Virus record (IMG/VR): IMGVR_UViG_2681813265_000006 | Direction: 5' to 3' (one strand) | Length of the DNA: 8,341 nucleotides | From: a virus | Taxonomy: Duplodnaviria; Heunggongvirae; Uroviricota; Caudoviricetes | In this document: in pieces, positions 425 to 8,341 of the stretch | Layout: each line of letters starts with the position of its first letter | How positions within the stretch are numbered: the stretch's first letter is position 1 | The notes under the pieces: model-generated | The model's database searches: none | Told to the model about the DNA's origin: nothing | What the model saw: the letters and a program-made list of their open reading frames with translations, nothing else | Program-made: the position numbers and the translations under genes

Positions 425-760
425 ATGAAGTGGATTGTGATTGATACAGTTATCCAGCCATCATGCGGAATATCTTTTTCAGTCATATGGAGTAAAATAA
501 AATTAATAATCTGGTATCAATCGGATGCTTTCTTACCTCCTGAAAGTATATTTACACTGACTCACACAGGCATCATGCTCAATAACAAAGTGCTACCTGT
601 AACCATTTACAACGTAGTACCATTCAATAAAACATTCTGGAATTCAATCAAAAATAGCCAGGAATGCCCTACAAATACAGATAACGTATTGAATGAATGC
701 TTTAATAACCGTTGCACTCTGCAAATATGTCCTTATGGACTAAAACAACAAAGTCCATAA
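425..760 (+). CDS. Hypothetical 111-aa Cys-containing protein encoded in an AT-rich island, on the strand opposite to all phage genes
   Basis: 111-codon open frame in markedly AT-rich DNA (where stop codons are frequent), with a good SD (AAGGA, 6-nt spacer) and a candidate promoter. No family recognised by eye. Confidence 0.35.
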
Positions 761-1207: not shown

Positions 1208-1534
1208 CTACCCCAGATGAGTAATCCGAAGTTCATCCATACCACAGGTCCTGGCTATTCTGTTGTACTCCTGAACAAGAGCAAATAATTCTGAATTAGC
1301 AACCATGAACTCATCGCAAACCCTCTGTATAGCATCACTATTCAGAATAATAACGTCTCTTCCCGAAAGACGATCAGGAGTACAGAACAAAACTGTCAAA
1401 CGGCTGAAGGCCTTTGCTCGTGCTGCATTGACTATATCAATACGCTGCCTAAGGATGAAACACCCCGACGCCTCATCAATATTCACTCTACCCACACCAT
1501 ATGAATGATAAATATTTAATGCTGAAAAAACCAT
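1208..1534 (-). CDS. Hypothetical protein, 108 aa from ATG 1534 (117 aa if the TTG at 1561 is used); unrecognised cargo ORF downstream of tRNA copy 1
   Basis: Longest ORF in the 650-bp block (1023..1671) that is absent from the second module copy. Weak SD. The TTG-start version has a hydrophobic N-terminus (IECLLYGLMVFSALNIY). No family recognised. Confidence 0.3.
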   Translation of the reverse strand: MVFSALNIYHSYGVGRVNIDEASGCFILRQRIDIVNAARAKAFSRLTVLFCTPDRLSGRDVIILNSDAIQRVCDEFMVANSELFALVQEYNRIARTCGMDELRITHLG

Positions 1535-1671
1535 TAGACCGTATAACAAACACTCAATCAATACTTAACAGAACTTTTATTTTTGACAAACATAAAATAT
1601 TTTCAACAATATCCTGAGCCAGGTATATTTCAGTATAAGGCTCTGCCGGAAGGAATCTGGAAGAATGAATA

Positions 1672-4297: not shown

Positions 4298-5119
4298 TTA
4301 CCTAGTTACCTTTTTTAACTGCCGCTCAGCCCATGCTTCTTCAATATCAAACCGGGTCACCAGCGCATCATAAAATTTCTTAACTGTTTTTTCCCATGAC
4401 GCGCGTGTTATCTGGTTTGTCACCTCGCATATAGCATTAAATGCCTCCGTTGATGGTAGTCTTTCATAGCCACGACCACCACAACGCTGGCAGTCTCTGA
4501 TAACAGGCATACCACGTTTTACCGACTCTTCACGATGAATGGCGACACCACGCCCACGGCAATCCTTACAGGCGGTGGAAACCTCACCCTTTCCGCCACA
4601 CTCCGGACAGGCAACTTTTACCACCTCCCTGACTTTTTTCCATTCTTCCCAGTAAGACGGATACACACCTTTCGTACACTTTGCCCATACCGGCGGCTTA
4701 CCATCCGGATACTGGATCTTGTTTGTAAAAACCTCGCTTTCAATAAATTTTTTTCCGTGACAGCAGGGGCACTGTTTTTTGCTCGCCGCGCTACGGGCAT
4801 AATCTTCAAACGCATACGAAGCCATAATACGCATCACTGCCGGTTTTATTTCTGCCGGGAGTTTTCTTAACGCCGCCACGCGATCACACCGACTGAGTGC
4901 ATATTCTGTCAGCAATTCTGTTGCCCGCTCTCTGTCATTCATACTAATGCCCATTTTCCCAAGGAACGCAGAAACCCCCATCTCAGCCCGATTCTGTGTC
5001 ATGCCCTGCGCGGCCATCACATCAGTGATACTCAGCGCATCTTTCGACGTTGAGGCCGATGCATCAGTCAGGCCGGGGGATTTTGGGGAGTAGTATTTCG
5101 GTAAATCTTCCAGTTTCAT
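4298..5119 (-). CDS. Q: Late-gene antiterminator Q (273 aa)
   Basis: Position immediately upstream of a lambda-like PR'/tR' unit. Several CxxC pairs (CPCC, CPEC, CKDC, CQRC) consistent with Q-family zinc fingers. ATGA overlap with rusA. Confidence 0.8.
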   Translation of the reverse strand: MKLEDLPKYYSPKSPGLTDASASTSKDALSITDVMAAQGMTQNRAEMGVSAFLGKMGISMNDRERATELLTEYALSRCDRVAALRKLPAEIKPAVMRIMASYAFEDYARSAASKKQCPCCHGKKFIESEVFTNKIQYPDGKPPVWAKCTKGVYPSYWEEWKKVREVVKVACPECGGKGEVSTACKDCRGRGVAIHREESVKRGMPVIRDCQRCGGRGYERLPSTEAFNAICEVTNQITRASWEKTVKKFYDALVTRFDIEEAWAERQLKKVTR

Positions 5120-7033: not shown

Positions 7034-7064
7034 AAATAAAAACAAAAACCCGCCGAAGCGGGTT
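7034..7064 (-). terminator. Rho-independent terminator of the hok transcript
   Basis: Minus-strand AACCCGC-UUCG-GCGGGUU followed by UUUUGUUUUUAUUUU. A GAAA-tetraloop stem-loop (plus coordinates 7104..7125) lies just after the hok stop. Confidence 0.75.
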
Positions 7065-7132: not shown

Positions 7133-7288
7133 TTACTCCTCAGGTTCGTAAGCTGTGAAGACAGCGACCTCCGTCTGGCCGGTTCGAATTCGTACCTCGC
7201 AGAGGTCTTTCCTCGTTACCAGTGCCGTCACTATGACGGTTAAACAGATGACGATCAGGGCGATTAACATCGCCTTTTGCTGCTTCAT
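7133..7288 (-). CDS. hokD: Hok-family type I toxin, HokD/RelF-like (51 aa)
   Basis: Translation MKQQKAMLIALIVICLTVIVTALVTRKDLCEVRIRTGQTEVAVFTAYEPEE matches HokD as I remember it. SD AAGGAG lies 9 nt upstream. The ORF-track version (7133..7345) adds an in-frame 19-codon extension. Confidence 0.85.
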   Translation of the reverse strand: MKQQKAMLIALIVICLTVIVTALVTRKDLCEVRIRTGQTEVAVFTAYEPEE

Positions 7289-7499
7289 AGCCTGCTTCTC
7301 CTTGCCTTTCGGCACGTAAGAGGCTAACCTAGATTTGCCGTTCATAGATTGAGCCTCAGATTAATGTTAAGCGTCTTGCCGGACGCGTAATGTTAACTGG
7401 GGCTTTTCTCTATCTGCCTTTTGGTGTTCATGCCTGAGACAGATAGCCTCAAGCACCCGCTGCAATTCTACTTAACTCTCCTTTTCCCGCAAACCGTTT

Positions 7500-7583
7500 T
7501 TATCCCCAGCGGCAAATCGAATACACCACCAGCGCCACCGCCATCGCAATTCCTACCGTTGTTAATGCTTCAGGCCAGGTCAT
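7500..7583 (-). CDS. 27-aa hydrophobic peptide ([27 protein letters not shown]), translationally coupled to gene C
   Basis: Its ATG overlaps the gene C stop (ATGA). A single predicted transmembrane helix. Below the ORF-track size cutoff, found by manual translation. Confidence 0.4.
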
Positions 7584-7924
7584 CGTAAAATATCCTCCAC
7601 GCTTATCAGTCCGTTCCGCTCCAGATAACTCATCGCCTTATCCGGTAATTTGCAGTCTGGCTTCGCTTTCCTCAGTTGCCAGGTTAACTGCTTTACCAGC
7701 ATGGTTAACTCATCGACCAGACGCTGATATCCCACTGGTTTGTATTCATGCAATTTACCGGCTGGCTCTGCTGCCAGCGATACCAGTGCGATTTCCAGAA
7801 CAGCAATATCCATCTTATATGTGCGGATGATGTCATGGTCGATTGTGCCCGGTATGCACAGTCTCTGTGCTTCAATAGTCTCCTCTGCGTGAGCTATTAA
7901 CTGCTCTCTGGTAAAAGTCGTCAT
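7580..7924 (-). CDS. Hypothetical nin-region protein C (114 aa), paralogous to gene B
   Basis: Its ATG overlaps the gene B stop (ATGA). Shares MTTxTxE at the N-terminus and an A(L)xSLxAEP motif with gene B. Confidence 0.6.
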
Positions 7925-8088
7925 GCCGTAGCCCCTTCTTGATATTTTTCAAACCAGAACACAACCGGCTCTGCTTCCAGCGATGCCAGCGCAATCCGTG
8001 CCAGTTCCATTTGTTCACCACGGGTAAGCCCGTTTTCAAGCGGGTTTTTAATGAACAATTCAATACGTTCTTTGGTAATAGTGGTCAT
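7921..8088 (-). CDS. Hypothetical nin-region protein B (55 aa), short paralog of gene C
   Basis: ATG at 8088 preceded by AAGGAG (6-nt spacer), which overlaps the gene A stop. Translation [55 protein letters not shown]. Missed by the ORF track because it is under 60 aa; the track's 7872..8063 ORF is the wrong frame. Confidence 0.55.
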
Positions 8089-8098
8089 GTGTTACTCC

Positions 8099-8329
8099 TT
8101 AACCCGCAGTGCTTTCAACTGATGAGGGGAACAAAATCTTTTCATCAAACCCTGCATTCATATCATGAACAGCAACACACCAATCCATCGACGAACGATT
8201 ATCAAGAGCCTCCATGATTTCATCCATGCGGCGTAGGTCATACAGGTAAATGCTTTTATCGCCAATGGTGTAAAAGCCAATTTTTTTCGGTGATGGATGA
8301 GGTGTACTGGCAATAGCGGACACTACCAT
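8099..8329 (-). CDS. Hypothetical protein A (at least 76 aa), first gene of the coupled A-B-C-D operon; its start lies within IR-R
   Basis: The ORF reads from the ATG at 8329. There is no in-frame stop in the 4 codons upstream before the window edge, so the true start may lie outside the window. No family recognised. Confidence 0.45.
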   Translation of the reverse strand: MVVSAIASTPHPSPKKIGFYTIGDKSIYLYDLRRMDEIMEALDNRSSMDWCVAVHDMNAGFDEKILFPSSVESTAG

Positions 8330-8334
8330 TTGTT
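8298..8334. repeat. IR-R: right arm of the 37-bp perfect inverted repeat
   Basis: Exact reverse complement of 1..37; contains the ATG (8327..8329, minus strand) of CDS 8099..8329. Confidence 0.9.
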
Positions 8335-8341
8335 CTTTTTT

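Follow-up and report, generated by a model that had tools for sequence, protein, structure and literature searches.

Do the four small genes that precede hokD in a Qin-like prophage form a dedicated system, or are they ordinary accessory DNA? The question is raised by the viral record IMGVR_UViG_2681813265_000006 (Caudoviricetes), a stretch of 8,341 nucleotides (nt) that was analyzed at its full length and is called the window below. The window is a Qin-like lambdoid prophage read backwards, and the four genes, here called A, B, C and D, lie on its minus strand upstream of hokD. The first-pass annotation, made from the sequence alone, had proposed that they are a tightly coupled operon of the toxin-antitoxin (TA) or defense type. 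We favor, with a probability of about 0.7, the reading that they are the end of an ordinary, reshuffled Qin-like accessory array, truncated by an insertion sequence (IS), in which delayed-early genes are accompanied by a conserved inner-membrane micro-protein, D. On this reading the putative new four-gene TA or defense operon is a false lead, being mosaic accessory DNA partly destroyed by an IS, and gene D is the one element here that is worth following up: it is a well-defined small-protein target, and could give insight into the action of early phage arrays on the membrane. The array is laid out as follows.

8099..8329, minus strand: remnant of gene A, an open reading frame (ORF) of 76 amino acids (aa) from the ORF list; the native part is 8099..8297
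7921..8088, minus strand: gene B (55 aa, WP_000207997), from the ORF list
7580..7924, minus strand: gene C (114 aa, WP_000206826), from the ORF list
7500..7583, minus strand: gene D (27 aa), from the ORF list
8298..8341, minus strand, in the same orientation as A to D: terminal ~44 nt of IS600 (IS3 family), from sequence matches

A mosaic array cut short by IS600

The four ORFs and their junctions are as first described. On reading the sequence, the TAA stop codon of A is found within TAAGGAG, a Shine-Dalgarno (SD) sequence 7 nt ahead of the ATG of B, and the B/C and C/D junctions are both ATGA overlaps. The ribosome-binding sequences are GAAGGGG before C and GGAGGA, 9 nt upstream of the ATG, before D. 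Between A and D a consensus scan of the gene strand gave no promoter, and a scan of the window gave no convincing candidate for an internal terminator on the gene strand of the array. Stoichiometric co-translation had been deduced from these junctions. The start/stop overlaps point to translational coupling, but stoichiometry is not something that overlaps show, and in the relatives compared overlapping starts are the norm throughout such small-gene arrays.

The genes A to D are not an obligatory set. About 140 distinct sequence contexts of D, a sample partly selected through C, display 44 architectures, which include DUF4014-A-B-C-D-hok (the commonest), HNH-C-D, B-D, DUF551-D, C-module-D, DUF4014-D and D alone. 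The obligate inheritance as a pair that is expected of type II TA systems was not seen among them: the gene before C may be B, an HNH gene or yet another, and B is found directly before D without C.

The proposed paralogy of B and C holds. They share an N-terminal module with 33% identity over 54 aa (BLASTP, E=1e-5), and both match PHROGs 60, 660, 3323 and 5117, for all of which the function is unknown; the values are E=1.3e-19 for B with phrog_3323, E=4.3e-18 for B with phrog_60, and E=8.2e-43 for C with phrog_660. Over residues 1-44, B has 86% identity to the N-terminus of P22 EaA (E=3e-17) and 93% to that of HK620 hkaE. B is made up of this EaA-type N-terminal module (residues 1-41) and a 14-aa tail that bears the ribosome-binding site of C. 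The same 14 residues also terminate the HNH endonuclease gp11 of the Stx2 phage ArgO145, directly before C; therefore, wherever C goes, the last ~45 nt of the gene preceding it go too, a junction cassette that holds the ribosome-binding site of C. Since residues 1-44 match EaA and the tail is shared with the HNH gene, B looks like an EaA hairpin joined to junction sequence; essentially the hairpin alone, it is probably a product of recombination. In the ArgO145 locus (L002) the HNH endonuclease gene upstream of C occupies 4639-5004.

C begins with an EaA-type helical hairpin (residues ~1-54, 7763-7924), continues with a disordered linker and ends in a C-terminal module (residues 70-114, 7583-7717). 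The AlphaFold2 model of C has helices at residues 6-26 and 30-51, both with pLDDT of ~90, a linker at 55-63, and then the three helices of the C module, at 66-87, 95-103 and 109-113. In a modular alignment this 45-aa module (ELTMLVKQL...) is nearly invariant from E72 to R114. Throughout the family of B and C the N module is a two-helix hairpin that starts with MTTxTKE. The relatives of C, which are named in their sources 'Eaa protein', 'EaA protein' or 'DUF551 domain-containing', have many variants of this module, followed by variable middles set apart by proline-rich linkers and, at the C-terminus, by either DUF551 or the near-invariant 45-aa module. Pfam detects no DUF551 in B or C, whereas longer relatives have it, and neither B (55 aa) nor C (114 aa) has the full-length EaA architecture of a long body that often ends in DUF551. 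When a profile of the C family was compared with the sequences in PDB, only designed coiled coils were matched; C is predicted to fold as a generic helical hairpin, and nothing nuclease-like or toxin-like was matched. A search for C in a contig collection with one genome per species returned a single contig, from a mis-binned metagenome-assembled genome. B and C are members of a heavily mosaic EaA/'Eaa'/DUF551-linked family (PHROGs 60/660/3323) of unknown function.

Two further proteins of this family were encountered. P0031 (101 aa) is a natural hybrid of B(1-37) and C(52-114) with its crossover in the shared ASLxAEP motif, and P0001 (167 aa) is a frameshift fusion of B and C. Both are new small genes built by recombination between paralogous modules, and the clean shuffling at the ASLEAEP motif illustrates how small phage genes can be born through recombination.

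Gene A had been taken as an open-ended gene of 76 or more codons. Its 5' end is in fact cut by IS600, and the ORF is a chimera of IS and gene. The match of the best E. coli relatives to the window ends at 8297, and the first bases of IS600, TG, are at 8298. With the 52 nt at 8290-8341 as a query, we found 5451 places annotated as 'IS3-like element IS600 family transposase' (96% identity over 52 nt), with up to 43 copies per genome and 875 places on plasmids; the transposase coding sequence lies on the same strand as the match and ends where the match begins. The ATG of ORF A (8329) and its first ~11 codons are IS600 sequence, while native codons ~23-87 and the stop codon remain. Intact A has 87 aa (WP_000224233), begins with MATLTKKERAWLNELQEVLDRCPSPKK, and matches phrog_1714, again of unknown function. 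The family of A was found in Escherichia, Salmonella, Klebsiella, Enterobacter, Edwardsiella, Pectobacterium and Serratia, and A is an autonomous, non-mosaic alpha/beta protein of 87 aa that is spread over Enterobacterales. In Salmonella and Klebsiella it also sits in small early-gene arrays, but its neighbors there are Ead_Ea22, DUF551, PAPS reductase and DUF3850 genes.

The 76-aa chimera of IS600 and A (P0217) is present on 832 contigs under the name Shigella sonnei, which suggests that the insertion is fixed in that lineage; S. sonnei locus tags are also attached to exact copies of B and C. Going by these source names, the window most probably comes from S. sonnei. In the window, IS600 has inactivated A and cut the array off from its native upstream operon. 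Expression of the array here could come only from IS600 read-out, or there could be none.

Gene D, a conserved micro-gene

The 27 codons of D are intact in about 108 of 114 distinct sequence contexts, in the form of 46 intact alleles. The hydrophobic core (residues 7-24, 18 residues, mean Kyte-Doolittle value 2.18) is flanked by the acidic MTWPEA and by RWG. It had been proposed that D is a membrane peptide, and this is supported; D is predicted to cross the inner membrane once, with its C-terminus inside. In all contexts the ATG of D overlaps the TGA of the preceding gene as ATGA, and in every one of them a GGAGG-type SD sequence is present 6-9 nt upstream. The preceding genes, among which DUF551 genes are common, end in at least four unrelated ways: for example, the DUF551 gene ends with ...PEPPQEVNQ-stop, the gene in phage Av-05 with ...KKGMNQ-stop, and a zinc-ribbon/coiled-coil protein gene in phage 933W with ...NIEQEVNR-stop. 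On the other side, mosaic breakpoints fall directly past the stop codon of D.

The most diverged allele, that of Av-05, has 12 synonymous and 6 non-synonymous differences. Its ratio of non-synonymous to synonymous divergence (pN/pS) is about 0.17, estimated on codons 12-27, the part left free by the search pattern, where pS is 0.81 and pN 0.14. The codon variants pooled over alleles give a pN/pS of about 0.44, and the replacements are hydrophobic for hydrophobic. Judged by these comparisons, D is a real, widely conserved gene under purifying selection that is almost never annotated.

The phage and E. coli collections were searched for D. It is present in 95 phage records, including those of 933W, VT2-Sakai, Min27, ArgO145 and lytic rV5-like Vequintavirinae such as Av-05, and in 1325 of the 5426 complete E. 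coli genomes, that is, about a quarter, with up to five copies per genome. RefSeq/PGAP does not annotate it, so that only the overlapping upstream gene sits under the match; in a few GenBank records it appears as a hypothetical or bacteriophage protein. Profile scans with D gave only the sub-threshold matches DUF883_C (E=0.029) and KdpF (E=0.12). Full-text searches of the literature gave no mention of the peptide, nor did the supplementary material of the Sakai small-gene Ribo-seq paper.

In phage vB_EcoS-689R5 (L003, 4342-4452), D has lost 1 nt at codon 2, and an out-of-frame 'hypothetical protein' of 36 aa is annotated in its place. The allele is common to five IMG/VR loci, and most of its remaining substitutions are synonymous when read in the original frame of D; it may reflect either an inactivation not long ago or a sequencing error that the records share.

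Two other accounts of D were tried and rejected. The first was that D is a C-terminal membrane anchor, joined to the preceding protein by -1 frameshifting. However, the sequences ahead of the ATGA vary among contexts (TTTTACGATGA, GTGAATCAATGA), no canonical slippery heptamer was found, and D has its own SD sequence for independent initiation in each context. The second was that D belongs to a 'DUF551 domain-containing' cluster, but the five cluster members that were retrieved do not contain the D sequence.

A more specific role for D is conceivable, though we think it improbable. D would then represent a family of 27-residue phage membrane micro-proteins, produced only by re-initiation, that counter or time Hok, or target some other inner-membrane factor of the host, during lytic growth. 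Such a function, if real, would explain why D is retained both next to hok in Stx and Qin-like phages and in lytic rV5-like phages that have no hok.

hok/sok, relBE and the weaker explanations

The features between the stop codon of D and the end of the hokD unit are as follows.

7465..7492, minus strand: putative hok promoter, identified by eye (-35 TTGCGG at 7492-7487, 16-nt spacer, -10 TAGAAT at 7470-7465)
7283..7458, minus strand: hok/sok regulatory region, Rfam RF01794 (cmscan 112.4 bits, E=1.2e-25, full-length model)
7133..7345, minus strand: mok-like leader ORF (70 aa), which contains hokD (51 aa, 7133-7288), from the ORF list
7047..7064, minus strand: intrinsic terminator after hokD, a 7-bp GC-rich stem followed by a T run

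The hokD locus of the window has the Hok ORF, the mok leader and the sok/hok RNA element that define a hok/sok type I TA locus. In a relative (L001) RefSeq annotates the gene as 'type I toxin-antitoxin system toxin HokD', and PF01848 is assigned in relatives. The putative promoter starts 8 nt past the stop codon of D and scores under the cutoff of the consensus scan; its position would fit the start of the Rfam element at 7458. Past hokD the order is a small ORF (in relatives 'toxin to Rem' or hypothetical), DUF968/YdfU, RusA, Q, a DNA methyltransferase gene and a tRNA array. Intact relatives carry the array between replication and DUF977 genes on one side and hokD-DUF968-RusA-Q on the other. 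The nin-equivalent position upstream of hok that had been assigned to the cluster is supported.

It had also been noted that this slot holds relBE in Qin. The K-12 prophage does carry relB-relE-hokD, but the equivalence of the two slots is loose. Homology between K-12 and the window ends at 7302, 14 nt before the ATG of hok, where relBE begins; therefore, relBE in K-12 replaced the hok/sok leader together with everything upstream of it. Whereas hokD of the window has a full hok/sok leader and the 70-aa mok-like ORF, hokD of K-12 lacks both.

The proximity of D to hok leads to a second alternative, which we also think improbable: D is tied to hok/sok, either because it modulates or antagonizes Hok in lytic growth or because translation of D insulates the hok promoter from read-through. 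In a sample of 83 D contexts drawn independently of C, hok follows within 700 nt in 50 (~60%). The D-to-hok junctions comprise several distinct sequences, the stop codon of D lies just ahead of the putative -35 element, and in 933W D is followed by hokW behind an unrelated upstream gene. On the other hand, one inherited junction, AAACGGTTTGCGGG..., dominates with 43 contexts, so that the linkage may be one of descent, and no hok follows D in the remaining 40% of contexts. Av-05 has no hok motif within 600 nt downstream of D, and in ArgO145 the C-D pair is located in the early-left 'ea' region, behind the HNH gene and ahead of a terminator and a reverse-strand TA pair. Nor is there sequence similarity or evidence of interaction in favor of the tie. 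As to D being itself a Hok-like type I toxin, an own promoter, a structured 5' untranslated region and a cis-antisense RNA were looked for and not found, and the shared property is that of a small hydrophobic peptide; the Rfam sok/hok element lies solely downstream of D, at 7283-7458.

The dedicated TA-like, defense or anti-defense operon that was originally suggested, in which C would be the effector, B its paralogous neutralizer and D a membrane partner, all made in fixed ratios, is in our view very unlikely. The start/stop overlaps and the N module shared by B and C speak for it, as do the proximity of the cluster to hok/sok at roughly the position of relBE in K-12 Qin, the rank of A-B-C-D as the most frequent single haplotype, and the TA pair just downstream of C-D in ArgO145. 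However, neither Pfam nor NCBIfam gave anything significant for A to D, a search of PADLOC-DB v2 with the four proteins returned 0 families at E<=1, and no profile of RelBE-like toxin or antitoxin domains was recognizable; thus the four have no TA, toxin or defense profile match, and the fold of C is generic. Furthermore, the genes reassort freely (HNH-C-D, B-D, DUF551-D and the recombinant P0031), A is found with different partners in other genera, B amounts to the truncated N-terminus of EaA, and overlapping starts are usual in such arrays. The annotation had itself named an outcome that would speak against its operon, namely that A to C are ordinary conserved Nin proteins of known function and that D is neither conserved nor translated. 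A to C do fall into ordinary conserved phage accessory families, although their functions are unknown, and the conservation of D contradicts the second half.

Also very unlikely is that D is a conserved non-coding 'boundary' or linker, or an upstream element of hok, that is open by chance: it would agree with the absence of a RefSeq/PGAP call, the exact position at mosaic junctions and the few frameshifted alleles, but not with the synonymous excess in diverged alleles (Av-05, 12 against 6; pN/pS about 0.17), the hydrophobic replacements and constant length of 27 codons, the SD sequence that stays suitably spaced in three upstream coding sequences unrelated to one another, or the conservation of D where hok does not follow.

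Expression, known systems and the rest of the window

The preferred reading, that of a truncated and reshuffled accessory array, places the region at the distal end of an 'ea-type' array, in the nin-equivalent slot between the replication genes and hok-rem-ydfU-rusA-Q. In intact prophages such an array would be read after induction from the delayed-early (pR-side) polycistronic transcript, a proposal based on the order of the genes, their common orientation and the absence of promoters and terminators inside the array. Translation would proceed by termination and reinitiation at the overlaps that are seen in the sequence. The hairpin of B and C is probably an oligomerization or adaptor element for swappable effector modules, and, if Ea22 and other early accessory genes are a guide, the soluble proteins A to C may be dispensable and tune host physiology or the choice between lysis and lysogeny. 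D, separately initiated, closes such arrays whichever gene precedes it and would act at the inner membrane in lytic development.

Several points weigh against this reading. No single haplotype is more common than A-B-C-D (about 27 of about 140 contexts), and 315 complete E. coli genomes contain the A-D block at >=80% coverage; neighboring genes of the block may interact functionally. The finding of hok after D in 60% of contexts hints at a link more specific than that of being the last gene of an array. D is frameshifted or carries a nonsense codon in about 8 of 84 loci linked to C, including that of phage vB_EcoS-689R5. PF13935 (Ead_Ea22) does not match A to D at E<=1; in related loci this domain was seen solely in neighboring genes. 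Finally, the gene structure, the stop/start overlaps, the modularity, the mosaic distribution and the purifying selection on D are shown by the sequences; the transcription unit, the membrane insertion and the biological role are all matters that we infer, and the roles proposed for the EaA-type N module, the C module, A and D come from analogy only.

Among the closest known proteins are P22 EaA and HK620 HkaE, to whose N-termini residues 1-44 of B are 86-93% identical; the hairpin of C, itself 33% identical to that of B, ends with IALxSLxAEP. The EaA/'Eaa' proteins and B and C alike are products of small early genes in head-to-tail arrays, strongly mosaic and of unknown function. They differ in that B ends after the hairpin and C has the 45-aa C module in place of the long EaA body and DUF551.

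Lambda Ea22 and P22 Ead are likewise encoded by early, non-essential genes in the same type of array, often adjacent in related loci, and are modular with portable C-terminal domains including DUF551. Ea22-family proteins have been described as mosaic, with portable C-terminal domains that include DUF551, and as favoring lysogeny (PMC10834534, PMC7093339). In contrast, no coiled-coil tetramerization core of the Ea22 type was identified in A to D. Because PF13935 does not match, Ea22, the nearest family with experimental data, is treated here as an analogue and not as a demonstrated homologue.

The relBE-hokD region of K-12 Qin shares the backbone of the window (hokD, rem, ydfU and Q), and in both prophages genes lie directly upstream of hokD. 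In K-12 these are a type II TA pair and the hok/sok leader is lost, whereas in the window the leader is intact and is preceded by EaA-type genes and D, with no TA signature. D, with 27 aa, one predicted hydrophobic helix and a basic C-terminal end, resembles small single-pass membrane proteins of bacteria and phages, including the type I toxins Hok, TisB and DinQ. Unlike these, it has no promoter of its own, no detected antisense RNA and no sequence similarity to them, and would be a re-initiation product at the end of another gene.

Elsewhere in the window, the small RNA (sRNA) STnc100 is found twice on the minus strand, at 786-975 and 2125-2300 (132 and 104 bits), and a block of tRNA-Met(cat) and tRNA-Arg(tct) is duplicated at 1672-1924 and 2377-2626. 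Direct repeats of 121-219 nt with 91-94% identity are spaced about 700 and 1325 nt apart. The duplicated sRNA, the tRNA block and the direct repeats therefore indicate an old tandem duplication downstream of Q. Beyond the tRNA array, at the place of the toxin cargo in Stx phages, there are two ORFs, at 425-760 (plus strand, 111 aa) and 1208-1561 (minus strand, 117 aa).

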